Shown here one piece after another: positions 1,957 to 17,389 of a stretch of DNA of 17,827 nucleotides. Position numbers and translations under genes: made by a program. Source of the DNA: a virus (taxonomy: Duplodnaviria > Heunggongvirae > Uroviricota > Caudoviricetes); IMG/VR virus record IMGVR_UViG_2563366903_000004. One strand, 5' to 3'. Each line of letters opens with the position of its first letter. The stretch's first letter is position 1. Under the pieces are notes generated by a model. That model was not told where the DNA came from, ran no database searches, and saw only the letters and a list, made by a program, of their open reading frames with translations.

Positions 1957-3939
1957 TTATGATGATGCCCGGCTTTCGTTAACTTTGACTGTGACCGTAT
2001 CAAGCAGTACCGGATACGTCGCTTTTGCCCCCGTGATATCTGTCAGCGTCAGCGTATCTGCTGTAAAGCCATCATTTGTCCACATCACCAGGTCAAACGC
2101 AGACTGCTCTGTATCATCAATCACCGGCACCACTTTTTCGCTGTTATTTCCCGCAAAGCGGAAAACAACTGTATGCCAGTTATGGTCAAATGCCCCAAAT
2201 GTGCCCAGTTGCGCATTCGACTCCCCCTTGTGGTACATCAGATTCAGATTTGATGCATCCGTCTGAAGGAAGAAGGACGCCAGCATGCTGTTTGCTGTCG
2301 CGCCTGACGCCCACTGCGACACCGGCCAGTACAGACCAAAGACAAACTGACCGTTAACCAGTTCGACACCCTCCGGGATCTTAAACCGCACGGCAATTTC
2401 ACCTCCCTTACTGAGAAGATTTTTTGCCTCCTCCACCGCAACAGTACGGAACATCTTCCAGGAGGTCAGTTTACCCGGCTGTTTTTCCAGTCGCAGCGCC
2501 TTCCTGCCACTGTCATCCGTCACAGTGCCTTTACCACCGGACGCATTCCACTGCTGCTCTGTCCATACACCACTGCCACTGTTCGCATCATATCCGGCCA
2601 CCATTCTTGTTACGGCTTCAGTATGACCGCCTGCAGAAGTACCTGCACCCTGCTGTTGCGTCGGACCCGCAGAGCCAGACTGTGCATCCCCCGTGGAGGC
2701 TGGCGTGGTCGCCAGCGGTGCAGACTGCCCGCTCAGGAACGGCAGCAAACGCCCGGCTCGCACCAGTATCTCTCCTGCCAGCCGATCTGAAACAATGCCT
2801 CTTCGCGCCCAGGAGCTGAAGTGCGTTTTACGATCGGCTGTCGTCCAGTTACCATTACTGCGTGACGCGGCACCATAGTATCCCGCCGTGATAATGTCCG
2901 GATCTTCTGACGGCTCGTTTGTCGGCACATTCGCACCATGCTCATCCGTCATCAACGGCACAAAGTGAATATTCTGCGCCGCCTTGCCTTTATAGCCTCC
3001 GTAAACCGCCTCATACTGCACTGCATACTTCGCCTTCCAGTCGTACGTGGTGTCACCGCAAATCCACGGGACGCCGGACGTTGTCCCGCCAATACACTGG
3101 TCTGCAATATCTGCCAGGTCTGCACGGTATTTATTTACCATGGCAAGAAAAAGTGCATTGTGCTCTGCATGTCTCCCCGAACTGACATCTTTTTCCCCCT
3201 GCATCCAGATCACCGACAACAGCACGTTTTTCGGATTTTTCTTCAGGGCCGCACGGGTTCTGCTGACCAGGTCATGATACAGCGGTTTATCCGCCCCCCA
3301 CAGGGACGAGCCTGCGGTCGCTCCCGACGCTTCGTTAAACGCCCCCTCGGCCCCCGCAGTAAATCCCGAATCGCCACGGCCACATGGAACAAGAAGGATA
3401 CCCGCATTCGCAGGCATAAACGGCAGCAGCTTTTTGGCAACATGCAGAGCATGCCCCACACAACCGTACTGCCCTTTATTGAGGTCTGCTTTCGGGTGAT
3501 TCAGATTACTCACGTCCTGCACATCATGCAGACAGTGGTCTGCCGGAATGATGTCGTTATATTTACAGGCGGCACCACCCGGCGTCACCGTACTGCGACG
3601 CGCCAGCTGTTTAATACGCGGGTCCGGACGGTCATATGTCTCCGGCAGCGGCAGCCCTTCACCAAAAGACATTGAGTTTGACTGCCCCGCCAGAACAACA
3701 ACAAAGTAATACTCCGGTTCGCTGGTGGTGCTGATAACTGTGCCTTCTCCATCCGACGGCTTCACCACCACAGGTGTGGTGACATCACCTTCCGCCGCAA
3801 TGGCCTGCATCAGGGTATAAGGCGTGATGGCGACAGGGCTGCCAAATGGCTGCCACCCCTCCTTCAGTTTTTGTGTCAGTCGCTCCGCAAGGTCTGACGG
3901 CGATGCCGCCCTGACAACATCATAGTGTTTAAATGCCAT
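1957..3939 (-). CDS. nanS-p: Prophage sialate O-acetylesterase, NanS-p-like (SGNH hydrolase family)
   Basis: 665-aa ORF 1957..3954; GQSNSMSFGEG matches the SGNH/GDSL active-site block; recalled similarity to the large esterase gene found downstream of stx in EHEC lambdoid prophages; the second Met (ATG at 3939, preceded by GGTGGAAAG) is the more likely start. Confidence 0.75.
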   Translation of the reverse strand: MAFKHYDVVRAASPSDLAERLTQKLKEGWQPFGSPVAITPYTLMQAIAAEGDVTTPVVVKPSDGEGTVISTTSEPEYYFVVVLAGQSNSMSFGEGLPLPETYDRPDPRIKQLARRSTVTPGGAACKYNDIIPADHCLHDVQDVSNLNHPKADLNKGQYGCVGHALHVAKKLLPFMPANAGILLVPCGRGDSGFTAGAEGAFNEASGATAGSSLWGADKPLYHDLVSRTRAALKKNPKNVLLSVIWMQGEKDVSSGRHAEHNALFLAMVNKYRADLADIADQCIGGTTSGVPWICGDTTYDWKAKYAVQYEAVYGGYKGKAAQNIHFVPLMTDEHGANVPTNEPSEDPDIITAGYYGAASRSNGNWTTADRKTHFSSWARRGIVSDRLAGEILVRAGRLLPFLSGQSAPLATTPASTGDAQSGSAGPTQQQGAGTSAGGHTEAVTRMVAGYDANSGSGVWTEQQWNASGGKGTVTDDSGRKALRLEKQPGKLTSWKMFRTVAVEEAKNLLSKGGEIAVRFKIPEGVELVNGQFVFGLYWPVSQWASGATANSMLASFFLQTDASNLNLMYHKGESNAQLGTFGAFDHNWHTVVFRFAGNNSEKVVPVIDDTEQSAFDLVMWTNDGFTADTLTLTDITGAKATYPVLLDTVTVKVNESRASS

Positions 3940-4132
3940 GGTTCTTTCCACCATCTGAAAAATAATTCTTTAAAATACCTGACATGTAATACAGAAAAAA
4001 CACAAAACCATACCTTAAATAAAAACCTCATCATCAAGCAGATATGCATGGGTAAACTACAAGACGAGATATAAACCACCCTGCATTTAAATAAACAATA
4101 AACAACATCAGAAAAATAATTCTGCTCTATGG

Positions 4133-4159
4133 TTTACATTCAAAAATATCATTTATACT
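4133..4159 (+). promoter_or_regulatory. Putative sigma70 promoter for the AT-rich moron gene
   Basis: TTTACA (4133-4138), 15-bp spacer, TATACT (4154-4159), ~40 nt upstream of the 4200 ATG; spacer length is suboptimal. Confidence 0.3.
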
Positions 4160-4199
4160 TTTCAGAACATCACCAGCAAGACATAAACAAGGAAACTAA

Positions 4200-4535
4200 A
4201 TGAAGTGGATTGTGATTGATACAGTTATCCAGCCATCATGCGGAATATCTTTTTCAGTCATATGGAGTAAAATAAAATTAATAATCTGGTATCAATCGGA
4301 TGCTTTCTTACCTCCTGAAAGTATATTTACACTGACTCACACAGGTATCATGCTCAATAACAAAGTGCTACCTGTAACCATTTACAACGTAGTACCATTC
4401 AATAAAAAATTCTGGAATTTAATCAAAAACAGCCAGGAATGCCCTACAAATACAGATAACGTATTGAATGAATGCTTTAATAACCGTTGCACTCTGCAAA
4501 TATGTCCTTATGGACTAAAACAACAAAGTCCATAA
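4200..4535 (+). CDS. Hypothetical protein (111 aa) in an AT-rich opposite-strand moron
   Basis: ATG at 4200 preceded by AAGGAAA; AT-rich composition unlike flanking phage DNA; Cys-containing, no obvious signal peptide; stop codon sits inside a perfect 12-bp inverted repeat (4505..4538). Confidence 0.4.
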
Positions 4536-4552
4536 GGAGTTTACTCACATCT

Positions 4553-4590
4553 GACAAAATCAATATAAACAGCCCCTCCGGAGAGGGGCT
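4553..4590 (-). terminator. Intrinsic terminator-like hairpin downstream of the GC-rich structured region
   Basis: Perfect 8-bp stem AGCCCCTC-cgga-GAGGGGCT (4571-4590), followed on the minus strand by a U-rich tail GUUUAUAUUGAUUUUG. Confidence 0.5.
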
Positions 4591-4830
4591 GGAGAGTGGC
4601 GCTATGTGCCATTGCATGGTGCCGGGTGCCTCCCGGTGAGTTCAGTATCAGCACCTGAACCCGCACAGAAAGGATAAGGGTCGGTGACAAAACACCAGTT
4701 GCTGATTGCCCCTCCGCACAGGGGGATTCACCATGCCAGTTTCTTTTAACAAACTCCCCGCAAACCAGACAACAGTCAACCGCCTGAATTGTGAGGCATT
4801 TAAAAATTTCAACGGGTAACTGATACCCTG

Positions 4831-4983
4831 CTAATCGCCTGATGCTTTCTTTTTCAGCAACGGGAAAGCAACAACCACCACACCCGCCACCAGCACACCG
4901 TCAGCCAGCACTGACATTATCCGGCTGCTGAAGTCCACCATCACCACCAGAAACAGCAGGAGCGCAACCACAGCCAGACGCAT
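4831..4983 (-). CDS. Small hydrophobic peptide (50 aa), possible membrane protein
   Basis: Hand-translated minus ORF MRLAVVALLLFLVVMVDFSSRIMSVLADGVLVAGVVVVAFPLLKKKASGD; starts 9 nt downstream of the TerB-like stop; below the ORF-track size cutoff; weak RBS. Confidence 0.25.
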   Translation of the reverse strand: MRLAVVALLLFLVVMVDFSSRIMSVLADGVLVAGVVVVAFPLLKKKASGD

Positions 4984-4991
4984 TTTTACCG

Positions 4992-5423
4992 TCACAGATG
5001 ATTCTCCAGACGAAGGCCCAGGACACCGGCAATCTCTTCCAGCACCTTGCGCTCTTCCGGCTCTATTTCGCCGTCTGCTTCGGCAATGGCCACCGCCACA
5101 TCCAGCACGTCTTCCGCTTCACGCGTATCGTGTTTCACATCCTCGATCTCACGTAACGCCGCTCGACGACCAATTTTAAAGTTCGTATCCAGCTGACCGA
5201 TAATGGTTGCGCTAATCGCATTAATTTCTGACGTAAACGCGGACAACGCAGGCTGGTTACGCAAGACCTGCTCGATCTTCGCTTTCTCTGAAGCCTCACA
5301 TTCACCATCTGCATAGGCCACCAGATAGGCAGCATTAATAACCGCCTGTGCCAGATCACGTTTCTCAAACTTTTTAATTTCCACTGCCGCTCGGCGGGCT
5401 TTTTTACCAAAAATACCAAACAT
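4992..5423 (-). CDS. TerB-like (tellurite-resistance family) protein
   Basis: Internal ATG at 5423 of ORF 4992..5495, with AAGGAA 7 nt upstream; MFGIFGKKARRAAVEIKKFEKRDLAQAVINAAYLVAYADGECEASEKAKIEQV... has the acidic/helical pattern of TerB-like proteins (recalled, not searched). Confidence 0.5.
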   Translation of the reverse strand: MFGIFGKKARRAAVEIKKFEKRDLAQAVINAAYLVAYADGECEASEKAKIEQVLRNQPALSAFTSEINAISATIIGQLDTNFKIGRRAALREIEDVKHDTREAEDVLDVAVAIAEADGEIEPEERKVLEEIAGVLGLRLENHL

Positions 5424-5554
5424 CGTGACGTTCCTTTGGGTGGGTGAGCCAACGCCCGGGAGCGATCTGCCCACAGAGAAAGTCACACTGACCACTCCGT
5501 AAGCTCACCCCCGAAAGGCTCTGTGGTTGATATGCGCCGGGCGTGGCGCAGATA

Positions 5555-5580
5555 CAAAAAAAGCCCGCCGAAGCGAGCCT
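5555..5580 (-). terminator. tR'-like intrinsic terminator downstream of Q
   Basis: Minus strand GGCTCGC-ttcg-GCGGGCT hairpin followed by seven T; ~150 nt downstream of the Q stop; a second GC palindrome (TGCGCC-N6-GGCGCA, 5532-5549) lies just beyond it. Confidence 0.6.
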
Positions 5581-5591
5581 GATAATAAATC

Positions 5592-5670
5592 TGGAGCGGG
5601 TAGCGGGAATCGAACCACGATAAGAAGGTTAACAGCCTTCCGTAATGACCTTTATACGACTGACCCAAAT
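5592..5670 (-). pseudogene. Degenerate tRNA-like element (tRNA relic) between Q and tR'
   Basis: Minus strand has a canonical T-arm/3' end (GGTTCGATTCCCGCTACCCGCTCCA) and a perfect anticodon stem-loop GAAGG-CTGTTAA-CCTTC (anticodon GTT) with a D-loop-like AAAGGTCA, but acceptor and T stems do not pair, so it is not an intact tRNA. Confidence 0.3.
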
Positions 5671-5729
5671 AAAAAAAGCCACCGTTGCAACTTAAGAGTC
5701 ACTAACGGCAGCTTACCCTCTAATTATGG

Positions 5730-6248
5730 CTAAATGGCTAATTGCATGTCAAGGCTTTTAACAGCAACATGCTTAACTTTCTCAACACGTTTACGCATTT
5801 TGAAAGCATTTTGCATTGGTTGGTACAAAACAAATAATGACGCTTTCAGGATATCGTCAATTTCGTTTCTACAGGTTGCCAGTGAAGGTTTTCTCCATCC
5901 CTCGCCACCGCGTCCACACATCTTGCGTGGCTTTGCAGTCGCGTGATAGTAGGATGCAATTGCTCTCTTAGATGAACCATGAGCGTAGTAGCTGAGGAGG
6001 ATGCCAAAGGCTTTCTTGTCAATGTACATGACGGAATCGACGACCTGAGAAATCAACATTCCATCATCATCATTACACATTGGTCTTGTCATAACTCTTC
6101 CCGGCTCTACGCTCTCCATGAACTTCGCTATTACGCTGCTCATGCGCTTTTCCAGACGACCTGAATAAACCCATGCGCCCCACAGTTCAAGCCAGCCATT
6201 CAGCCAATCGTGCTGTTCTTTGGTGAGGTTTAGTTCTCTTATGCCCAT
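5730..6248 (-). CDS. Q: Late-gene antitermination protein Q
   Basis: 172-aa ORF containing WGAW...C.DDD...LL.YY motifs recalled from lambdoid Q antiterminators; directly downstream of ninG and upstream of a tR'-like terminator. Confidence 0.75.
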   Translation of the reverse strand: MGIRELNLTKEQHDWLNGWLELWGAWVYSGRLEKRMSSVIAKFMESVEPGRVMTRPMCNDDDGMLISQVVDSVMYIDKKAFGILLSYYAHGSSKRAIASYYHATAKPRKMCGRGGEGWRKPSLATCRNEIDDILKASLFVLYQPMQNAFKMRKRVEKVKHVAVKSLDMQLAI

Positions 6249-6291: not shown

Positions 6292-6897
6292 TCATGCGGC
6301 CTCACTTCTGCTGTTTCGCAGGTCTTTGAGTTTCTGTTGGTACTCTGCCTTGATGGCCCTGCACTCTTCGACAGTCCAGCGATGGCGGTTATGGTTTGAT
6401 TCGATTTCGTCTACTGCTTCCTGCCCGATGCGGCTAATCAGTTCGACGCGATACGGAACGAGATTTCCGCTTTTGTGCTGGTTGCACACCACGCATTGCT
6501 TGTGAATATTGCGTTCATCAAATCGGAGTTGAGGTGCCGCAGCAGTTGTCCGGTAATGTCCGGCATCCCACTGAGCAGACGTGAGCGTTCCGCACGAGAT
6601 ACATGGTAAGTCGCGGTCTCTTTCTCTGATGAAGGCGTTTACGGCTTGTTGGGCTTGTTTAATCCAGTAACTGCGGGGCTTTAAGGCGAGTTTTCGAATC
6701 TTCAGTTTATCTTTCTGTTTCTGCTCCTCTCGTCGTCGTTTCTTCTCTGCTGCTTTTTCCGCTTTTTCGCGTTCTTTACTTCGTCGTTCGAGTGCTAATT
6801 GAGTTCCGTGTTCCGGGCAGCACCACCACTGATTTGAGAATGCCGGGTGAAACCATTCTTTGCATATTTTGCATTTCCTTCGCGCTGGTTTAGCCAT
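6292..6897 (-). CDS. ninG: NinG/Rap recombination-associated endonuclease
   Basis: 201-aa [107 protein letters not shown]... is near-identical to recalled lambda NinG. Confidence 0.9.
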
Positions 6898-7625
6898 TAA
6901 GCAGCCTCCCCTGTTACTTTCAGCATTCCGTTATCGAGCAGCTTTCTGGTCAGCCACTGTTGACCACGTCCGGTGATTTTTGTGGTGAACGATATCTGTA
7001 TTCCGTGATTTGTGTTGACCGCTGTTTCTTTCACTGTGAAATAGCCGCGCTCCATATATTCCTGCATTGGCACATTTCGCCGGGAACCTGAAGCGATAAG
7101 GATTTTGTGATCGCGCATCCACGCAAACAGTTTGTTTGGACCAATTCCAACAACCTTTGCATAGTTTCCAATCAAAATTCCGCTGGCCTCGCCAACGCGA
7201 TCGGCAAACTCAACTTTAGGTGCTGCGAGAGCAAGCTGTTTCTCCAGTTCAGCCTTCTGGTCTTCAAGGTCGGCCGCAAGGCGCAATGCCTCAGAAAAGG
7301 TTTGTGGTATTTTCGCGGTTGCCCCTTCGAGTTCTCGCCAACGGTCAACAAGACGAGCGGTGAATTCCGGCGACAACTGAGCGACGACAATAATGCTGTC
7401 TCGCTTACCTTGTTCGCCTTCGAATATATACACGCTTGTGAATTTGTTAGGGCTAATTGTTTGTTTATTTTCAACTTTTTGCATTGGAGGAAGTTGAATC
7501 ACCCCACGCTTTGCCAGACGTTCTATTGATATTCTGACATTACCGTGTTGGCTTCCCACCAACTCAGCGATTTCAATGCTTGTCATTTTGATGACGTTGC
7601 TATTTATCAGCTCATTCATTGTCAT
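6897..7625 (-). CDS. Phage antirepressor-like protein (Rha-type N-terminal domain plus KilAC/Ant C-terminal domain; Roi-like)
   Basis: 242-aa ORF; N-terminal segment [22 protein letters not shown] resembles Rha; C-terminal region resembles the antirepressor KilAC domain; its stop overlaps the ninG start by 1 nt (TAATG). An alternative start at Met3 (7619) has better SD spacing. Confidence 0.65.
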
Positions 7626-7693: not shown

Positions 7694-8377
7694 TCAGTAG
7701 CGATGCAGTGAAGGCGGCAACTCTTTGTTCTTAAGCCTTTCCCATGCCAGAAGGTTCGTCGGCCCGTCAGGCTCATAAATATCTATATCCCGCGTGTGAT
7801 TAATTAAAACGCCCCTCGCCCTCCCGATGATATACGAGAACTCATAGCCGTAGTCGTGGCATATGCCGGAATAGCCAGACTGAATCAGTTTTAATGCGGG
7901 ATACAACTCACGGAACAATGCCTGTGAGCGGTTGGCATAATCCCACAGCCATACAAGGCTGTCTGTTTCTTTTGCGGAAAGCCCGTTGGGCTTCTTCTCT
8001 TGTTTGCCAGTATTTTTCTCGCACTGGCTGAAATAGCAGTCTTCCAGTTTTTCGAACACTTCCCACGCCCGATCGGTTTCGAGCATTTTTGCATGACGGG
8101 CTGCGCCGCGTTCTGTCCATAGGATGAGGGAGCGAACGTTACGGGCAATTTTCACAGAGTAGTTAAAAGCTACTCTGTGCTTGAACTCACGTAAAGTTTC
8201 ACCTTCAAGTTTGAAGAAGTGTTTTTCCTCAATGAAACGACCTTTGTTTTCGTGGTGATTCTGGCGAATACGAATAGCTTCTGTGCCGTAAAGGTGCGCC
8301 AAAAGTTCGGTAGTGATAACGGGGATCTGCTTGTAAGTAATCGTGGAGAGTGTTTCAACAGAAACTTGAGTTGTCAT
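7694..8377 (-). CDS. ORF6N/KilA-N-type DNA-binding domain protein (227 aa) with an uncharacterised C-terminal half
   Basis: ATG at 8377 with GAGGG 7 nt upstream; N-terminal ~110 aa match the ORF6N pattern (recalled); the gene is bracketed by intrinsic terminators. Confidence 0.55.
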
Positions 8378-8654: not shown

Positions 8655-8837
8655 TCACCTTGTTTTCCTCGCACGATGTCTTAGCCACCGGATATCCCAC
8701 AGGTGAGCCGTGTAATTGAAGGTTTTAACGTCAGATTCTTTTGGGATTGGCCTGGGTTTATTTCTGGAGCGTTTCGTTGGAAGGTATTTGCAGTTTTCGC
8801 AGATGATGTCGGTGATACTTCGTCGCTGTCGCCTCAT
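8655..8837 (-). CDS. ninE: NinE
   Basis: Internal Met of ORF 8655..8927 gives the 60-aa [60 protein letters not shown], near-identical to recalled lambda NinE; ATGA overlap with the upstream methyltransferase stop. In this stretch my reading of the printed sequence and the ORF-track frame disagree by 1 nt; track coordinates are used. Confidence 0.8.
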
Positions 8838-9361
8838 GCCGCCCTCCTGACGCCCTGCCCGATCGCCATCAATGCCGCTTTGGATACGGTAGTAAACATC
8901 CGTCGAGGACTGATGAACGGTCGCCAAATCAGCAGCATGGAACCTTTGCTGTTTCCCTTCTTCTCCAGCCCTGTCGATGGTTCGATAAAATTAATCCGTC
9001 CATCAGTGATGATGCGAACTTCGTCAACACTCTCCAGAGCCTTACTGAACCATCCGACAGACATATCCTCTGGCACAAGCATCACTACCGTCTGTCGTTG
9101 TTGTATGCACTGCTCAGCGGCTTTTTCCACCCACGGCCTGATATTGCTGTACGGTGGGTTATTCCAGATTGCACCGTGGCTTACCCACTCAGAATTGAGC
9201 GCGTCGTCGGCCTCAGTTAGCCAGTGAGCACACAGAGCATTTTTGTCGCTCGCTGCCGAATCCAGCCAGAATCCAAACTCAATATCCAGTGCATCAAAAA
9301 GCCAAAGCGGCGTTTGCCAGCAGTCCTTGTCGTGTGCTGGCGTATTTGATTTGATAGTCAT
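8834..9361 (-). CDS. Phage DNA N6-adenine methyltransferase (Dam-like)
   Basis: Start taken at the internal ATG 9361, which overlaps the ninB stop as ATGA; [59 protein letters not shown]...[11 protein letters not shown] has the NPPY catalytic motif of N6-adenine methyltransferases. Confidence 0.8.
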
Positions 9362-9804
9362 GCAGCCTTCCCTTTTCGTTGTGACCATTCATACTCTCGC
9401 CAGGAGTCATCACTCCACCGCACGTTGCGCTCTGAGCCGAACCAGAACATGATTTCGATAAGCTCAGTCATGCTGGCCTTCCGCATTTTGCTGGTGCGCA
9501 CACCAAGCATGACAACGCCACCGCCGATACCAGGCGCACTTCGTTGCTCCAGTTTTTTGGTCTTAAGCCACAGGGCAGTGAACAGGTCTTTCCAGTCTTC
9601 CGGCGCCAGCCGTTGACCATGCCATAGCACCTGACGCGAAACATCGTTCAGCATCGGCCACATACGGTCATTCTGCGCTTTGCTACGCTTGGGTTCTTTA
9701 ACGTGGACTTCGTGGGGTGACTTGTCGTCGATGGGTAGTGAGAGAATGGCGTCTATGGCGTTATTTCTGATTGCTTCGTTGCGAAGCAGAAAGGTTTGCT
9801 TCAT
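9358..9804 (-). CDS. ninB: NinB (Orf) recombination mediator
   Basis: Internal ATG at 9804 of ORF 9358..9906; MKQTFLLRNEAIRNNAIDAILSLP...DVSRQVLWHGQRL...WSDDSWREYEW aligns along its length with recalled lambda NinB. Confidence 0.85.
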   Translation of the reverse strand: MKQTFLLRNEAIRNNAIDAILSLPIDDKSPHEVHVKEPKRSKAQNDRMWPMLNDVSRQVLWHGQRLAPEDWKDLFTALWLKTKKLEQRSAPGIGGGVVMLGVRTSKMRKASMTELIEIMFWFGSERNVRWSDDSWREYEWSQRKGKAA

Positions 9805-10599: not shown

Positions 10600-11297
10600 A
10601 CACTTGCTCCTTTCAGTCCGAACTTAGCTTTAATTTCTGCGATCTTCGCCAGAGCCTGTGCTCGATTTAGAGGTCTGCCGCCCATGACAGGAAGTTGTTT
10701 TACTGGTTCAGGTATCGTCTCACCACGGTTAATTCGTGCTGTCATACAGGTCAGTTCATCGGCAGCCTTGCGCCGTAATTCCGCGTCAGTCAGCGCATTG
10801 GCCCGCATGTTCTGGTACAGGTTGGTAACCAGCCAGTAGTGCGCGTTTGATTTCCACGGATAAGACTCTGCATCCGGATACAGGCCACGCTTCCGGCAAT
10901 ACTCGTAAACCATATCAACCAGCTCGCTGACGTTTGGCAGTCCGGCGATAACGGATGCTTCTTCCCGGCACCATGCAACAAACTGCCCGGGTGATGGAAG
11001 AAATGGTCGATTCTGCCGACGGGCTACGCGCATTCCTGCGTTAACCTGTTCCATCGAGGTGATCCCGTTTTCCCGGAAAGCCAGAACCCACTGGCGGCGG
11101 ATTTCATTCAGTTCGTTCTGGCCCCGGTTAGCCAGACTCGCCGGGAAAGTTGCCAGTAACTGGCTGAACACACCGTTGATGATCTGCGCTACCTGTTGTA
11201 CCTGCGGCTTTTCGTCGTACTGTTCCGGCATGTTGTTGGCGATCCGACGCATCTGCTCACGGTCAAAGTTAACCATCTGTGCGGCGATGTTTTTCAT
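10596..11297 (-). CDS. P: Replication protein P (DnaB helicase loader)
   Basis: 233-aa ORF MKNIAAQMVNFDREQMRRIANNMPEQYDEKPQVQQVAQIINGVFSQLLATFPASLANRGQNE... is near-identical along its length to recalled lambda P. Confidence 0.95.
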   Translation of the reverse strand: MKNIAAQMVNFDREQMRRIANNMPEQYDEKPQVQQVAQIINGVFSQLLATFPASLANRGQNELNEIRRQWVLAFRENGITSMEQVNAGMRVARRQNRPFLPSPGQFVAWCREEASVIAGLPNVSELVDMVYEYCRKRGLYPDAESYPWKSNAHYWLVTNLYQNMRANALTDAELRRKAADELTCMTARINRGETIPEPVKQLPVMGGRPLNRAQALAKIAEIKAKFGLKGASV

Positions 11298-11965
11298 AAA
11301 TCCACCCCGTAAATCCAGTCAGTGTTTGTCAGGTCGAGTTTTGGTTTGCTGGCTGTCACGCCTGCCTGTTGCTTGTTACGGTTGATTTCGAGCTGGGTCC
11401 ACTTGTCGCGGAGTTTGGCCGGACTCAGCACGTTACCGGACCAGAAGTTGTCCTGGCAGGCCCAGCGGAAAAGCACACACATATCGCGGTGGTTACGTCC
11501 GTCACGTTCACGCATCAGGCGGATATCGTTAGCCCACCCTGCAAAATTCGGTTTTCTGGCTGATGGTGCGATGGTCTTCACCATGTCAAACATCCACTCT
11601 GCGGCGGTCAGGTCTTCTGCTGTTCCCCACTTGCTGCCGCTCTGAATTGCAGCATCCGGTTTAACCACAGAAAGATCGTTTTCTGGCTGGTCAGAGGATT
11701 CGCCAGAATTCTCGGACGAATAATCTTTTCTTTTTTCTTTTGTAATAGTGTCTTTTGTGTCCCCCTGTTTTGAGGGATAGCAATCCCCTAATTTGAGGGA
11801 TGTTTTATCCCTCGTTTTAGGGGGGGTTCCCTCGTTTTGAGGGATGTCCCTCATTTTAGGGGAACCTCCCTCGTTTTGAGGGATGCACCATTCTGAGATG
11901 TTTTTATTTGGTCCAAACATGCCGCCTTGCTGCTTGATAATATTCATTCTGACGAGTTCTAACTT
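11294..11965 (-). pseudogene. O: Replication initiator O, C-terminal portion (gene split by IS insertion)
   Basis: Frame continues from the IS junction (AAG TTA GAA CTC GTC AGA ATG AAT ...) into MNIIKQQGGMFGPNKNISEW...TNTDWIYGVDL, matching recalled lambda O residues ~91-299; contains the ori iterons. Confidence 0.85.
11761..11882 (-). repeat. Lambda-type origin of replication: six iteron-like repeats (TCCCTCAAAACGAGGGA on the coding strand), with an adjacent AT-rich unwinding region at ~11700-11760
   Basis: Six copies of ccctc(g/a)ttt(t/a)gaggga-like 16-18-mers at ~19-23-bp spacing inside the O coding remnant, followed by an A/T-rich tract (cttttcttttttcttttgtaatagtgtcttttgtg). Confidence 0.75.
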
Positions 11966-12007
11966 TGAACCGCCCCGGGTTTCCTGGAGAGTGTTTTATC
12001 TGTGAAC

Positions 12008-12898
12008 TCAGGCTGCCAGATCATCGTTTCCGATGGAAGCATAATAAGCTTTTTCTGCTTCTGCCGGAGGAGTATGGCCCAGCCTTTCCAGCAATCGTCG
12101 ATTGTTATACCAGTCCACCCACGTGAGTGTGGCCAGTTCCACTTCTGCACGGTTTTTCCAGCTCTTACGGTGTATTACCTCCGCTTTGTAAAGACCATTG
12201 ATGCTCTCCGCCATCGCGTTGTCATACGAATCGCCTGTACTTCCTGTTGATGCCAGTAATCCGGCTTCCTTAAGCCGCTGTGTGTAGGCCAGCGATACAT
12301 ACTGAGAACCTTTATCACTGTGATGGACCGTGCCGGACGGTCGACGGGCCCATAACGCCTGCTCCAGTGCATCCAGCACGAATGTCGTCTCCATGGACGA
12401 TGAGACCCGCCACCCCACAATGTATCCGGCAAACACATCAATGATGAACGCCACATAGACGAAGCCCTGCCATGTGCTGACGTAAGTAAAATCAGCCACC
12501 CACAGCTGGTCAGGTCGTTCTGCCACGAACTGACGGTTTACGCGGTCGCCTGCGGCAACGGCTTTCCGGCTGATGGTCGTACGGACCTTTTTACCCCGGA
12601 GAACACCGGCAAGTCCCATAACCGCCATGAGACGTGCCACAGTGCATCTGGCCACTCTGATACCTTCCCGTAACAACTGACGCCAGACTTTACGCACACC
12701 GTATACCTTGTGATTTTCATCGTATACGCGCTGTATCTCTTTCTTCAGCCAGTCATCGCGCTGCGCACGGGCACTGCGTTTATCCGGATGATATCGCTGT
12801 TGCTGACAGTGGTAATACGTTGACGGGGCAATATGCAGTTCGCTGCATAGCGGTCCGACCCCGTACTGCTCACGCAGCTTATCCAGCAGTGGCATCAT
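12008..12898 (-). CDS. IS3-family transposase OrfB (DDE catalytic domain)
   Basis: 296-aa ORF; recalled as the IS629 OrfB sequence; normally expressed as an OrfAB fusion by -1 frameshift. Confidence 0.9.
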
Positions 12899-13221
12899 TT
12901 TTTCCAGAGGCGGTCGAACTCCGCCTTCGCAAAATAAGCGGAAGCCTGGCGAAGGATATCGTTACTGCGGCGCAGTTCACGATTTTCACGCTCCAGCTCT
13001 TTCAGACGCTGACGTTCAGCGGTGGTGAGCCCTCCATCACCGCCCCCGGTATCCCGCTCATGCTGGCGAACCCAGACACGCAGAGTCTCCGGCGTACAGC
13101 CAATCTTTGGAGCAATGGAACAAATTGTCGCCCATTGTGAGTCATATTCGCCCTGACTTTCCAGAACCATACGGACTGCCCGTTGACGGACTTCAGGGGA
13201 AAAACGAGTATTTTTAGTCAT
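12895..13221 (-). CDS. IS3-family transposase OrfA (HTH domain)
   Basis: 108-aa [60 protein letters not shown]...; ends in an A-rich run (TGG AAA AAA TGA) overlapping the OrfB start, consistent with a programmed -1 frameshift site. Confidence 0.9.
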
Positions 13222-13272
13222 CCTGTTTACCTCTTTCTCAGGAAGTTTAGTCTCCAGGATTCCCGGGGCGGT

Positions 13273-13545
13273 TCACTTGGCTTCATTGCACCGTTTGACA
13301 GGTAACTTTGTAATCTCGCTAAGTTGAGAATCGGTGATTCTGTCCATTGGTTTATTCCACCCATAGGTTTTACGCAGAATGGCAAGCAGCACTTTAAACT
13401 GTCGCTTGGTCAGATCTGCGCCTGAATAAGCCTCAATCAGCATATTTGATAGTCTGGCGTAACCATCATCGAGATCTGCCACATTACGCTCCTGTCCGGC
13501 AAAGTTACTTCTGCCGAAGTTGAGTATTTTTGCTGTATTTGTCAT
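13273..13545 (-). pseudogene. O: Replication initiator O, N-terminal 90 codons (truncated by the IS629-like insertion)
   Basis: MTNTAKILNFGRSNFAGQERNVADLDDGYARLSNMLIEAYSGADLTKRQFKVLLAILRKTYGWNKPMDRITDSQLSEITKLPVKRCNEAK matches recalled lambda O 1-90; the stop codon is supplied by the IS end (TGAACC). Confidence 0.85.
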
Positions 13546-14015: not shown

Positions 14016-14243
14016 TTATGCAGCCAGAAGGTTCTTTTTGCTTATTTCAAGCATTTCGCTTGCTTGATATTTGCCACCAGAAATCTCTTCGATTTTTGAT
14101 GCGTATTTCGTTTTCCCAAAAAACTCAGTCTTAGGGAGGAAGCCGTTTTTGAGCCACTTATAGACAGCCCTTTCGCTAACTCCACAAGCCTTCGCAACTT
14201 CAGGGATGCCGACACCTTTAATCGGCTCATCAAGATTTTGCAT
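14016..14243 (-). CDS. cro: Cro-like repressor (HTH)
   Basis: Internal ATG at 14243 with AAGGA 7 nt upstream; 75 aa with an HTH segment (GIPEVAKACGVSERAVYKWLKNG); divergent from cI across the operator region. Confidence 0.7.
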   Translation of the reverse strand: MQNLDEPIKGVGIPEVAKACGVSERAVYKWLKNGFLPKTEFFGKTKYASKIEEISGGKYQASEMLEISKKNLLAA

Positions 14244-14321
14244 AGGGATATCCTTTTTCGTACTTTCAGTACGCATTATGATTGAACTGAAAGTTTTTGC
14301 AAGTGCTTTAGTATCGTACTC
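14244..14321. promoter_or_regulatory. cI-cro intergenic operator/promoter region (OR-like) with three palindromic sites and divergent PR/PRM candidates
   Basis: Palindromes CGTACTttcAGTACG (14259-14273), AACTgaaAGTT (14285-14295), AGTAtcgTACT (14310-14320); PR candidate on minus strand: -35 TTGCAA (14297-14302), 16-bp spacer, -10 CATAAT (rc of 14275-14280); PRM candidate on plus strand: -10 TAGTAT (14309-14314) ending 7 nt before the cI ATG. Confidence 0.6.
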
Positions 14322-15029
14322 ATGGTTCAGAATGAAAAAGTGCGCAAAGAATTCGCCCAGCGGCTAGCGCAAGCCTGTAAAGAAGCTGGTCTTGATGAAC
14401 ATGGTAGGGGAATGGCTATAGCCCGTGCCCTTTCTCTTTCGTCCAAAGGCGTTAGCAAATGGTTTAATGCTGAGTCTTTACCGCGTCAGGAAAAAATGAA
14501 TGCGCTTGCGAAATTTCTAAACGTTGATGTTGTTTGGCTTCAGCACGGCACTTCGTTAAATGGAGCGAATGATGAAGATACTCTTTCATTTGTTGGCAAA
14601 TTAAAAAAAGGGTTAGTGCGCGTGGTTGGTGAGGCAATTCTTGGTGTTGATGGTGCCATCGAGATGACCGAAGAGCGCGATGGGTGGCTCAAAATTTATA
14701 GCGATGATCCAGATGCCTTTGGTCTTCGTGTGAAAGGAGACAGCATGTGGCCCAGAATAAAATCAGGAGAATATGTACTCATTGAGCCTAACACCAAAGT
14801 ATTTCCGGGGGATGAGGTGTTTGTCAGAACTGTTGAAGGACACAACATGATCAAAGTTCTTGGCTATGACAGAGACGGAGAATACCAATTTACAAGCATC
14901 AACCAGGACCACAGGCCAATAACGTTGCCTTATCATCAAGTAGCAAAGGTGGAGTATGTGGCTGGTATTCTGAAGCAATCTCGCCATCTGGATGACATCG
15001 AGGCAAGGGAGTGGCTGAAAAGTTCGTGA
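14322..15029 (+). CDS. cI: CI prophage repressor (HTH N-domain plus S24 LexA-like autopeptidase C-domain)
   Basis: 235-aa ORF; C-domain has the GDSM serine-nucleophile motif (RVKGDSMWPRI) and a downstream Lys (MIKVLG); no SD before the ATG and a -10-like TAGTAT ends 7 nt upstream, suggesting a leaderless PRM-type transcript as in lambda. Confidence 0.85.
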   Translation: MVQNEKVRKEFAQRLAQACKEAGLDEHGRGMAIARALSLSSKGVSKWFNAESLPRQEKMNALAKFLNVDVVWLQHGTSLNGANDEDTLSFVGKLKKGLVRVVGEAILGVDGAIEMTEERDGWLKIYSDDPDAFGLRVKGDSMWPRIKSGEYVLIEPNTKVFPGDEVFVRTVEGHNMIKVLGYDRDGEYQFTSINQDHRPITLPYHQVAKVEYVAGILKQSRHLDDIEAREWLKSS

Positions 15030-15111: not shown

Positions 15112-15153
15112 TTCCCTTTATGGGAAATGAATCTATAATTCCCAAAGAGGGAA
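15112..15153 (+). promoter_or_regulatory. Promoter/operator region of the HigB-like operon: two TTCCC-N5-GGGAA palindromes flanking a TATAAT -10 element
   Basis: TTCCCtttatGGGAA (15112-15126), TATAAT (15134-15139), TTCCCaaagaGGGAA (15139-15153); no good -35 hexamer found. Confidence 0.5.
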
Positions 15154-15165
15154 CAAAATCGGATT

Positions 15166-15453
15166 ATGAAGGTCTTAAACGTAGAGAGGCTTCACAGTTT
15201 TAGCCGGAAGCACAATCAGGCCAAGGGGGCTTTAGACTCTTGGTATGATGAAGTGATAAGAGAAAACTGGAAAACGACTCAAGACATACGGAATAGATTT
15301 AATTCTGCCGACTTCCTTCCTAACAACAGGGTAATTTTTAATATAAAAGGCAATAACTATCGGCTCGTTGTCCAAGTTGTTTACCAGGCAGGAATGGTCA
15401 TAGTTGAAAGAGTTGGAACTCATGCAGAGTACGACAAGTGGAGGCTTAAATGA
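15166..15453 (+). CDS. HigB/RelE-superfamily toxin-like protein (95 aa)
   Basis: C-terminal half FNIKGNNYRLVVQVVYQAGMVIVERVGTHAEYDKW matches the HigB pattern (recalled E. coli HigB ...FNVGGNELRVVAMVFF...IREVMTHKEYD); toxin-first order as in higBA; stop overlaps the next start (ATGA). Confidence 0.65.
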   Translation: MKVLNVERLHSFSRKHNQAKGALDSWYDEVIRENWKTTQDIRNRFNSADFLPNNRVIFNIKGNNYRLVVQVVYQAGMVIVERVGTHAEYDKWRLK

Positions 15454-16106
15454 ATCGAACTAGCTGGCGCATCATTAAAAATAGTGAAGAGCATGCTGCA
15501 GCTATGGAAAGGCTCATTGAACTTGCGTCTAGTGATTTACAACCTGGAACTGAAGATTTTGATGAGTTTGAACTACTAGGCTTGCTTATCGAGCACTATG
15601 AGTCACGCGAGTTCCCTATGGACAAGCCAGATCCCATAGAAGCAATCAAGTTCCGTATGGATCAACAAGGCCTCTCTTATGCCGATATGAAACAATACAT
15701 TGGCTCAGCATCTAAAGTATCTGAGGTCTTAAATCGTAAGCGTCCATTAAGTCTTTCAATGATCCGTAGACTACATGACGGACTTGGAATTCCTGCAGAT
15801 ATCTTAATTCAAGATATGAGCGCAATTGAATGGAGCCTAGTTGACGCAGAGGAAGAAGAAACAGCCATGACTAGCGTCATTGCTCGGTGTGAGTCAGCCG
15901 TCACATCACCTTCTGCTTATTTCGCTGAAAAGGCTACAGAATCTTACTTTTCAAAAATGTTGTTCAGCGCAGTAAGGGGTAATGGCAAATGCAAAGAAAA
16001 ACGGAATGTTTTTTCTTTGATAAGTAACTTGTCATCAAGTTTCACAGCGGCTAGCAACCTGAATGACGAAATGACTTCTGACGGAAATTACTTATTATTA
16101 CCATGA
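15450..16106 (+). CDS. HigA-like XRE-HTH antitoxin with ~90-aa C-terminal extension (candidate chaperone-addiction domain)
   Basis: 218 aa; residues ~60-130 (SKVSEVLNRKRPLSLSMIRRLHDGLGIPADILI) resemble the HigA HTH region (recalled ...VSRVLSGKRKLTLEHAKKLATRFGISPALFI); extra C-terminal tail absent from canonical ~100-140-aa HigA; ATGA overlaps at both ends. Confidence 0.6.
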   Translation: MNRTSWRIIKNSEEHAAAMERLIELASSDLQPGTEDFDEFELLGLLIEHYESREFPMDKPDPIEAIKFRMDQQGLSYADMKQYIGSASKVSEVLNRKRPLSLSMIRRLHDGLGIPADILIQDMSAIEWSLVDAEEEETAMTSVIARCESAVTSPSAYFAEKATESYFSKMLFSAVRGNGKCKEKRNVFSLISNLSSSFTAASNLNDEMTSDGNYLLLP

Positions 16107-16507
16107 AAATTGAACTCATTAGCAAAAAAGTTGAACGCTTGGTTATGACACGGCTAGAAGGCGATTCAACAGCAAAAAAAGCCATAAAAACAACCGTTAA
16201 TCTAAATAATGAACTTTACACTAATGTGAAGGATTCAAAGCTATTTAGAGTGAGATATTTTGCCTCCGTAACTATTGAAGGCAGGCTTGAGATGGACATC
16301 ACATACGACTTTGACTTCCGGTCAGAAGATGATTTTTCTCATGAAATGGCAAAATCATATGAGGTAAGGTCCATTGCTCCCAATATGGCATATCCCTATA
16401 TAAAAACATATGCCGAGCAAATTATCCTCATGTCAAACCTTGGTAGGTTCACTCTGCCTTATTTTGATTTCTTGGCCAATCCCATGGAAACGAACAGTAA
16501 TAAGTGA
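16103..16507 (+). CDS. SecB-like chaperone candidate (134 aa), third gene of the module
   Basis: C-terminal block APNMAYPYIKTYAEQIILMSNLGRFTLPYFDF resembles the E. coli SecB block [33 protein letters not shown] (recalled); ATGA coupling to the antitoxin gene; intrinsic terminator immediately downstream. Confidence 0.5.
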   Translation: MKIELISKKVERLVMTRLEGDSTAKKAIKTTVNLNNELYTNVKDSKLFRVRYFASVTIEGRLEMDITYDFDFRSEDDFSHEMAKSYEVRSIAPNMAYPYIKTYAEQIILMSNLGRFTLPYFDFLANPMETNSNK

Positions 16508-16516
16508 AATTCCCCA

Positions 16517-16542
16517 CCCGGCCTCAGCGCCGGGTTTTCTTT
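16517..16542 (+). terminator. Intrinsic terminator after the SecB-like gene (tImm-like)
   Basis: CCCGGC-ctcagc-GCCGGG hairpin followed by TTTTCTTT, starting 10 nt after the stop codon. Confidence 0.7.
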
Positions 16543-16825
16543 GCCTCACGATCCCCCACCTAAAAAAACATAACCATTTGTATTTATAGATGTAACTCGC
16601 TAAACCATGCAGTTCTGATCCCTGCCGCATAACCTTCATCAGCCACATTTTCAAAAATAAATTTCCTTATATATCAGAATCATACTTCGTAGAGTTAATA
16701 AATCACCAAAATTCGTACCAATAGTTCTTGATAATGTCGAACTATTGGTTCATCATTATCGTCATCAGCAGGACGCATTACTCACCAGGGCGGTGAATAT
16801 ACAACGATTCGAATATGAATCTACG

Positions 16826-17005: not shown

Positions 17006-17389
17006 ATGACACGCAGAACTCAGTTCAAAGGCAATTCACGTTCTCGTCGTCGTGAGCGTTTAAAGGCAAAGGCATTAGCTAACTGCGTACTGGCCCGCGA
17101 AGAAGCAATAAGTTCAGAAGTATTACACCGCCCTACTCTAAGCAGAGCGCAGATTCAGGCTAAAGGTACTCACGAAACGCCTGAGCGCATAGAAGACGCT
17201 AAGCCAATTAAGTTCATTGCACAGGACGTGATCTGGCAACAGAAAGAATACAGACGCAATCTGGAGCGAGCAGCCATTGTGTACGCGAATGAGTTTGGAC
17301 ATAAGCAACCAGAAACTGGTGTATGTCTTCCAAACGTAGCCATTTACGCGGCAGGCTACCGGAAATCAAAACAACTGACGGCAAGATGA
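17006..17389 (+). CDS. N: Antitermination protein N
   Basis: 127-aa ORF with an N-terminal arginine-rich motif (MTRRTQFKGNSRSRRRERLKAK); GGAGG RBS 7 nt upstream; candidate nutL boxB hairpin ~170 nt upstream. Confidence 0.85.
   Translation: MTRRTQFKGNSRSRRRERLKAKALANCVLAREEAISSEVLHRPTLSRAQIQAKGTHETPERIEDAKPIKFIAQDVIWQQKEYRRNLERAAIVYANEFGHKQPETGVCLPNVAIYAAGYRKSKQLTAR

Follow-up and report, generated by a model that had tools for sequence, protein, structure and literature searches.

The C-terminal tail of a prophage-encoded HigA antitoxin as the probable chaperone-addiction element of a HigBAC module

Why does a HigA antitoxin encoded on phage DNA run on for nearly a hundred residues beyond the point at which a canonical HigA ends? 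The question is posed by a 17,827-nucleotide stretch of Caudoviricetes DNA (IMG/VR record IMGVR_UViG_2563366903_000004; "the window" below means this whole stretch), in which three genes, higB, higA and higC, follow a cI-type repressor gene and encode a toxin, an antitoxin of 218 residues and a protein of 134 residues. A preliminary description, made from the raw sequence, had predicted that the C-terminal extension of the antitoxin is a chaperone-addiction (ChAD) tail, and this prediction is borne out: we consider it very probable (about 0.93) that nucleotides 15813-16103 encode the ChAD element of HigA in a prophage-borne HigBAC. The tail is an already known and experimentally dissected feature, not a new one, the locus being a characterised anti-phage toxin-antitoxin-chaperone (TAC) module that sits here in the rexAB slot of a prophage whose DNA at this locus is close to that of Shiga toxin (Stx)-converting phages.

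The HigA tail and its aromatic anchors

The higA open reading frame (ORF) occupies positions 15450-16106 of the + strand, stop codon included. Residues 1-121 (15450-15812) form the body, which comprises the HigB-neutralising part and the helix-turn-helix (HTH) DNA-binding domain detected as Pfam HTH_3 at residues 67-118; residues 122-218 (15813-16103, or to 16106 with the stop codon) form the tail. The solved structures of E. coli HigA (PDB 5ycl and 5ifg) can be aligned with residues 53-120 (E = 5e-5), and since the alignment extends to their residue 133-135 of 138, i.e. to the canonical C-terminus, about 97 of the 218 residues make up the extra tail that the preliminary description had noticed. 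The tail peptide quoted there is present exactly. Its boundary has to be moved, because the start given, position 15840, is codon V131, whereas the peptide and the ChAD begin at D122 (15813), 27 nucleotides earlier; a start at 15840 cuts off W128, the only invariant anchor of the tail.

We first consider whether the tail is real. The 218-residue ORF could be an artefact, in which a frameshift or a lost stop codon has fused a higA of about 125 residues to non-coding DNA, and truncated forms of 144 (P0048), 164 (P0041) and 143 (P0087) residues do occur in the databases. But the tail frame is free of stops over 97 codons while frames +1 and +2 hold 8 and 10, and an open frame of this kind is expected by chance with P = 0.0014 (composition-based), 0.13% of mononucleotide shuffles being open. 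Many homologs, at 45-94% identity, have a tail of similar length with the first and last anchors conserved; the exact 218-residue protein is found on at least 1000 contigs; the stop codon of the tail overlaps the higC start in an ATGA, as in coupled genes; and tail function has been demonstrated in the near-identical system of E. coli NT1F31, to which we return below. An artefact is thus left with next to no probability, and the HigA tail is a real coding region.

A disorder prediction, which the preliminary description had proposed as a check, agrees with the ChAD reading. In an AlphaFold2 model of the single HigA chain, built on a 24-sequence alignment, residues 1-123 form seven helices with a predicted local distance difference test (pLDDT) score of about 90, while residues 124-218 score below 50 and have no secondary structure at all. 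Pfam and NCBIfam searches returned no domain in residues 122-218. The tail is therefore predicted to be intrinsically disordered. The opposite view, that it folds independently as a second DNA-binding or enzymatic domain, has a precedent in the HigA-peptidase fusion of the defence system PD-lambda-2: a PADLOC profile of 402 positions, PD-Lambda-2_B, recognises the HigA body, and PD-lambda-2B is an Xre-type HTH fused to a C-terminal peptidase domain. Yet just positions 3-125 of those 402 are matched; the tail has neither a recognised domain nor predicted structure; its conservation is confined to isolated aromatic residues; and the third gene of the operon has a SecB fold and is not P4-antitoxin-like. 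We regard a second domain as extremely unlikely.

What, then, is conserved in a disordered ChAD tail? Among 24 homologs, mean pairwise identity falls from 75% in the body to 24.5% in the tail. Against this background W128 (15831-15833) is kept in all 24 sequences and is preceded by E in 23 of them, F158 (15921-15923) and F188 (16011-16013) are each kept in 17 of 24, and position 214 (Y214; 16089-16091) is Y or F in 23 of 24. A fast-evolving tail with fixed aromatics is the signature of a disordered region acting via short linear motifs. Two of the aromatic/hydrophobic patches singled out beforehand, YFAEKA (with F158) and VFSLI (with F188), do hold residues of experimental relevance; a third, YFSKMLF, does not, and W128 and Y214 had been missed. 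Nor is the tail of low complexity, as had been claimed. Its composition is biased to S, A and E, but its Shannon entropy is 3.88 bits, compared with 4.00 bits for the body, and no 12-mer in it falls below 2.2 bits.

The extension separates two groups of HigA proteins. At least 78 of the 120 best HigA homologs, which come from several enterobacterial genera by their source names, have a tail of 50 residues or more, and 30 of the 120 are short-tailed, ending about 5-34 residues past the HTH; relatives of 127-132 residues end 5-14 residues past it. An EW motif 9 residues past the end of the HTH, corresponding to W128 and the residue before it, is present in 71 of the 78 long-tail homologs and in 2 of the 30 short-tail ones, and both of the latter resemble truncated long forms.

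HigC and the layout of the operon

The gene upstream of higA, higB (15166-15453, + strand), had been taken for the toxin gene, and it is one: its 95-residue product, a RelE-type ribosome-dependent mRNA interferase, matches Pfam HigB_toxin with E = 4.6e-30 over profile positions 2-74 of 74, and PADLOC PD-Lambda-2_A with E = 5e-42. The gene downstream, higC (16103-16507, + strand), encodes the 134-residue protein that had been proposed as the chaperone. Both junctions, higB/higA and higA/higC, are ATGA overlaps of stop over start, and the three genes are translationally coupled.

The assignment of HigC was approached by sequence and by structure. By sequence, the best Pfam hit is to an unrelated family (E = 0.13), NCBIfam returned nothing, and neither phmmer nor a 20-sequence profile found a match in the PDB; the PADLOC profile PD-T4-9_C (CmdC), in turn, matches HigC with E = 3e-11. 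The AlphaFold2 model (pLDDT 86.9) shows four strands and a long helix, and Foldseek places it among SecB folds: matches range from E = 5e-7 to 1e-4 with template modelling (TM) scores of 0.65-0.77 and a probability of 1.00. The best of them (E = 5e-7, TM 0.73-0.75) is 5mtw, the M. tuberculosis SecB-like TAC chaperone Rv1957 with a bound ChAD peptide, and TM reaches 0.77 against the SecB proteins of E. coli and H. influenzae (1qyn, 1fx3). Because Pfam, NCBIfam and the PDB give no match by sequence, the SecB assignment depends on the predicted fold and the PADLOC CmdC profile. The pocket residues Y39, N41, R49 and D71 are all present in HigC and are invariant or nearly so among its homologs, and some sources name members of its cluster SecB. 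On this predicted fold, the 134-residue protein is the SecB-like TAC chaperone HigC, as had been anticipated.

We also looked at how the tail and the chaperone gene are distributed, judging co-occurrence from contigs that encode individual homologs. The order repressor, HigB, long HigA, third gene is repeated in Serratia grimesii and Citrobacter freundii, and hhalign identifies the third gene of the latter as a HigC homolog (probability 99.9%, with 43% identity). In an unclassified enterobacterium the order HigB, long HigA, HigC is found again, the comparison there covering these three genes; this was the one locus returned when species-representative genomes were scanned for HigC relatives. 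By contrast, a tail-less HigA relative of 131 residues (P0123) is encoded in a simple two-gene HigBA operon, after which come unrelated genes and no chaperone gene. A 128-residue HigA from Serratia symbiotica (P0080) adjoins ORFs of 62 and 86 residues and is apparently a decayed copy; it was not used as evidence. The features by which a TAC is recognised are hence seen at this locus: toxin, antitoxin and chaperone genes in that order, co-directional and tightly linked; a canonical type II core, given by the HigB_toxin match and the HigA structures; a SecB-like third gene; an antitoxin extension that two-gene relatives lack; and an extension that is, by prediction, unstructured by itself.

Upstream of higB lies a candidate control region. 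Two palindromes of the form TTCCC-N5-GGGAA, at 15112-15126 and 15139-15153 (+ strand), are a candidate HigA operator; the 17.8-kb window has no further match to this pattern, and the pair flanks a perfect TATAAT at 15134-15139 (+ strand), just upstream of higB. Ahead of higB in the Serratia and Citrobacter loci, both palindromes are retained at the same spacing while the DNA around them has diverged, and the palindromes are partly conserved upstream of tail-less two-gene HigBA pairs (L004-L006). A consensus promoter scan of the window did not report the TATAAT site, which it missed because the -35 element is weak. Judging from these sequence features, 15112-15153 is probably the HigA-controlled promoter/operator of higBAC, and such a promoter of its own would serve the operon besides read-through from cI.

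The cI gene itself (14322-15029, + strand) encodes a prophage repressor with an HTH (HTH_3) and an S24 peptidase domain (Pfam Peptidase_S24, E = 4.4e-16). Nine nucleotides past the higC stop, at 16516-16545 (+ strand), is an intrinsic-terminator-like hairpin with a T-run, a consensus match only, in which a 7-bp stem with 6 G-C pairs is followed by TTTCTTTGCC. An N-type antiterminator gene comes next (17006-17389, + strand). The order cI, higBAC, N, all on the + strand, is the same in the prophage of E. coli O26:H11 and in phage BP-4795, and with three genes between cI and N, higBAC occupies the slot that lambda uses for rexAB.

The operon DNA is 99.7% identical to that of the Stx-converting group, i.e. 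BP-4795, ST2-8624, Stx1a phages and the O26:H11 11368 prophage, and of 5426 complete E. coli genomes 88 have the full locus, as do 30 phage records, BP-4795, ST2-8624 and Stx1a phages among them. HigA and HigC of the window are identical to WP_001082382.1 and WP_000687675.1, respectively, and HigB differs from the O26:H11 copy at a single residue (R8K; R8 in the window, K8 in O26). RefSeq names the three proteins "HigB family toxin", "helix-turn-helix domain-containing protein" and "hypothetical protein". The practical value of the present analysis is one of annotation, as HigA (ChAD-bearing) and HigC (SecB-like TAC chaperone) can replace the RefSeq labels; no open question is made newly testable by the finding in the window.

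The characterised HigBAC of E. coli NT1F31

The anatomy of the operon, the disorder of the tail, the HigC fold, the anchors, the co-occurrence and the near-identity to a published system were all computed here; what is said below of chaperone dependence, of the effect of deleting the tail, of peptide binding and of triggering by the phage protein gpV comes from experiments on the NT1F31 copy and is carried over to the window by analogy. Those experiments are the work of Mets et al., which reportedly appeared later in Cell Host & Microbe in 2024. In the preprint, HigBAC was characterised from E. coli NT1F31, where it is found in a lambdoid prophage at a variable locus downstream of cI, the place of RexAB in lambda (bioRxiv 10.1101/2024.02.24.581848). 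The window agrees with it in several respects. In a lambdoid prophage, cI is followed by the same three genes in the same order; HigA has 218 residues, a ChAD at 122-218, the anchors W128, F158, F188 and Y214 and a Leu-Pro C-terminus; HigC has Y39, N41, R49 and D71 at identical positions; and residues 121-146 of the window HigA are the published calorimetry peptide HigA121-146, QDMSAIEWSLVDAEEEETAMTSVIAR, at 26 of 26 positions. The two prophages are different: that of the window belongs to the Stx-converting group, with a different cI N-terminal region and an O gene disrupted by an insertion sequence (IS).

In NT1F31, toxicity of HigBA is seen when HigC is missing and is relieved when HigC is supplied, and HigA lacking residues 122-218 neutralises HigB in the absence of HigC (bioRxiv 10.1101/2024.02.24.581848). 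The chaperone independence that the preliminary description expected of a truncated tail has thus been published for a near-identical protein. In the same study, a triple substitution at W128, F158 and Y214 abolishes rescue, and a quadruple substitution of the anchors leaves neither instability nor chaperone dependence. HigA is undetectable when HigC is absent, and His6-HigA is seen on immunoblots when HigC is present. A peptide covering HigA 121-146/148 binds HigC with a dissociation constant (KD) of 1.3 uM by isothermal titration calorimetry (ITC), binding is abolished by W128A, and HigC R49A fails to rescue. In clpPX, lon and hslVU mutants HigBA is still toxic, which excludes ClpXP, Lon and HslUV as the proteases (all bioRxiv 10.1101/2024.02.24.581848).

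On the side of the phage, lambda escape mutants map to gpV S54P, gpV being the major tail protein; gpV co-purifies with HigC; a gpV 48-78 peptide binds HigC with a KD of 250 nM, in competition with the ChAD peptide; and hydrogen-deuterium exchange (HDX) places the gpV interface at the peptide groove of HigC (bioRxiv 10.1101/2024.02.24.581848). A hybrid of HigC with CmdTA, the toxin-antitoxin pair of a second TAC described below, is reported in that preprint to have a wider defence spectrum.

These results suggest how the module of the window would work. The HigA body would neutralise the HigB RNase and probably also repress the operon at the two upstream palindromes, an autoregulation that we infer from their position. 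The 97-residue disordered tail would render HigA alone unstable, and HigA would stay functional as long as a HigC tetramer holds that tail, with W128, F158, F188 and Y214, spaced about 30 residues apart, in equivalent pockets. During infection by a lambda-like siphovirus, nascent gpV, which has a similar aromatic and acidic pattern, would out-compete the tail for HigC. HigA would then be lost, HigB would be freed, and the ensuing shutdown of translation would restrict the phage.

Which of the two partners senses the phage? The preliminary description had suggested that the tail can serve as the trigger surface, and one can imagine that the tail itself is the sensor, bound or modified by a phage protein, with HigC a passive stabiliser. 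That it is hypervariable between its anchors, as expected of a surface under diversifying selection, would fit. In the near-identical system, though, it is HigC with which gpV is pulled down, HigC that gpV 48-78 binds in competition with the ChAD peptide, HigC whose groove forms the HDX interface, and HigC that reportedly widens the defence spectrum of the CmdTA hybrid. We consider a sensing tail very unlikely. As gpV and the ChAD peptide compete for HigC, the chaperone is, by analogy with NT1F31, the sensor and the tail the displaced ligand; of the earlier suggestion, the dependence of the tail on the chaperone stands, while the trigger, gpV, is sensed by HigC.

Several points weigh against the identification of the window tail as a ChAD element. 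HigC has no SecB match in Pfam and none in NCBIfam or, by sequence, in the PDB, and the disorder of the tail is deduced from low pLDDT in a single-chain model. The experiments concern the NT1F31 copy and not the exact sequence of the window: the NT1F31 proteins are WP_112844288, WP_112844289 and WP_112844290, accessions that differ from those of the window HigA and HigC, and since RefSeq assigns one WP accession per identical protein, the window HigA and HigC must each differ from their NT1F31 counterparts by at least one residue. The differences lie outside the residues that were checked. The toxin, too, varies, the window HigB having R8 where the O26 copy has K8.

By length, the tails of HigA homologs P0052-P0111 form discrete classes (about 75, 90, 100 and 110 residues); all of them keep the EW anchor, and their C-terminal endings differ (…NYxLVS, …DFQRA, …PVxCY, …DFSLIS). 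Tails of the 75-residue class may contact a smaller number of HigC subunits, and every class seems to have a HigC variant of its own, an example being the Citrobacter HigC with its 43% identity. It is conceivable, if rather doubtful, that tail and chaperone co-diversify and so tune which phage structural proteins out-compete the tail. If this were true, the superinfecting phages that are excluded would vary with the allele carried by a Stx-phage-like prophage, and the carrier's own non-gpV tail-tube protein would be spared. The major tail subunit of BP-4795 (36187-37032 of that genome) does not resemble lambda gpV to any meaningful degree, its best local match (E = 0.003 over 25 residues) falling outside the 48-78 trigger loop. 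This sequence comparison suggests that the carrier phage BP-4795 does not trigger its own HigBAC upon induction.

Related systems and prophage context

The system whose chaperone is the best structural match of the HigC model is the M. tuberculosis TAC, Rv1955-Rv1956-Rv1957 (HigB1-HigA1-SecB(TA); Bordes et al. 2016, PMC5105189; Guillet et al. 2019, PMC6377645), with which it shares a HigB toxin, a HigA with a C-terminal ChAD and a SecB-like chaperone, and in both systems aromatic ChAD residues matter. The differences are considerable. HigC and Rv1957 have 16-17% sequence identity. In M. tuberculosis the ChAD spans about 42 residues (as in the deltaC42 mutant) and its main binding site is one stretch, residues 108-116, whereas the window tail has 97 residues and four anchors. 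HigA1 ends in a Val-Ala ClpXP degron while the HigA of the window ends in Leu-Pro; in the E. coli system, HigBA toxicity is independent of ClpXP, Lon and HslUV. Finally, the M. tuberculosis TAC lies on the chromosome and is seen as a response to stress rather than a prophage defence.

CmdTAC/PD-T4-9 (Vassallo et al. 2022, PMC9519451; PMC11618068) resembles HigBAC in its TAC architecture, its sequence-related SecB-like chaperone, its prophage location and its anti-phage role. Its toxin is an mRNA ADP-ribosyltransferase rather than a HigB, its antitoxin is unrelated to HigA and ends in an Ala-Ala ClpXP degron, and it acts against T-even rather than lambda-like phages.

PD-lambda-2 (Vassallo et al. 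2022, PMC9519451) also defends against lambda, and its HigB-like toxin and the N-terminal HTH body of its HigA are homologous to those of the window (PADLOC E = 5e-42 and 4e-50, respectively). The C-terminal peptidase domain of PD-lambda-2B stands where the window HigA has its disordered tail, and the third gene of PD-lambda-2 resembles a P4 antitoxin where that of the window is SecB-like. Membership of PD-lambda-2 was rejected on these grounds: the profile match does not go beyond position 125 of 402, a peptidase domain is lacking, and HigC is modelled with a SecB fold. As an observation in its own right, a HigBA pair matched by the same profiles is found with a peptidase domain there and with a ChAD tail here, which suggests that HigBA pairs are coupled to different C-terminal sensor modules.

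Housekeeping SecB, lastly, is built on the same fold as HigC, a long helix with a four-stranded sheet, and the HigC model scores a TM of about 0.7 against 1qyn and 1fx3. HigC, at 134 residues, is shorter, lacks a Pfam or NCBIfam SecB match and lies in a prophage toxin-antitoxin operon, as opposed to the yibN-grxC-secB-gpsA context of secB; its dedicated client is the HigA tail, unlike that of housekeeping SecB. Membership of the housekeeping family was rejected because there is no SecB family match and the context differs.

A mosaic junction lies inside cI (14025-14602): from 14602 on, i.e. over the C-terminal half of cI and as far as higBAC, the DNA is 99.6% identical to the O26:H11 11368 prophage, while the N-terminal part of cI and the cro region do not align with it at that level. 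The same HigBAC cassette thus travels with different immunity specificity. Gene O (11297-13545, - strand) is split by an IS3-family insertion of about 1.3 kb, with O residues 1-90 at 13545-13276 and residues 89-312 at 11968-11297; within the split are transposase orfB, with an rve domain (12008-12898, - strand), and a probable orfA (12895-13221, - strand). BP-4795 carries its IS629 elsewhere. The prophage is probably replication-defective.

The region 1957-6248 is bounded by a NanS-p-like esterase gene (1957-3954, - strand; DUF1737, SASA and DUF6645 domains) and the gene for a Q antiterminator (5730-6248, - strand). The interval between these two genes corresponds to the place of stx in BP-4795; no stxA-sized ORF and no tRNA genes were found in it, and it is occupied instead by a TerB-domain ORF (4992-5495, - strand). 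The nin region encodes two antirepressor-type proteins, one of the Rha/ANT type (6897-7625, - strand) and one with ORF6N and P22_AR_C domains (7694-8377, - strand), and a Dam-type N6-adenine methyltransferase (8834-9388, - strand).

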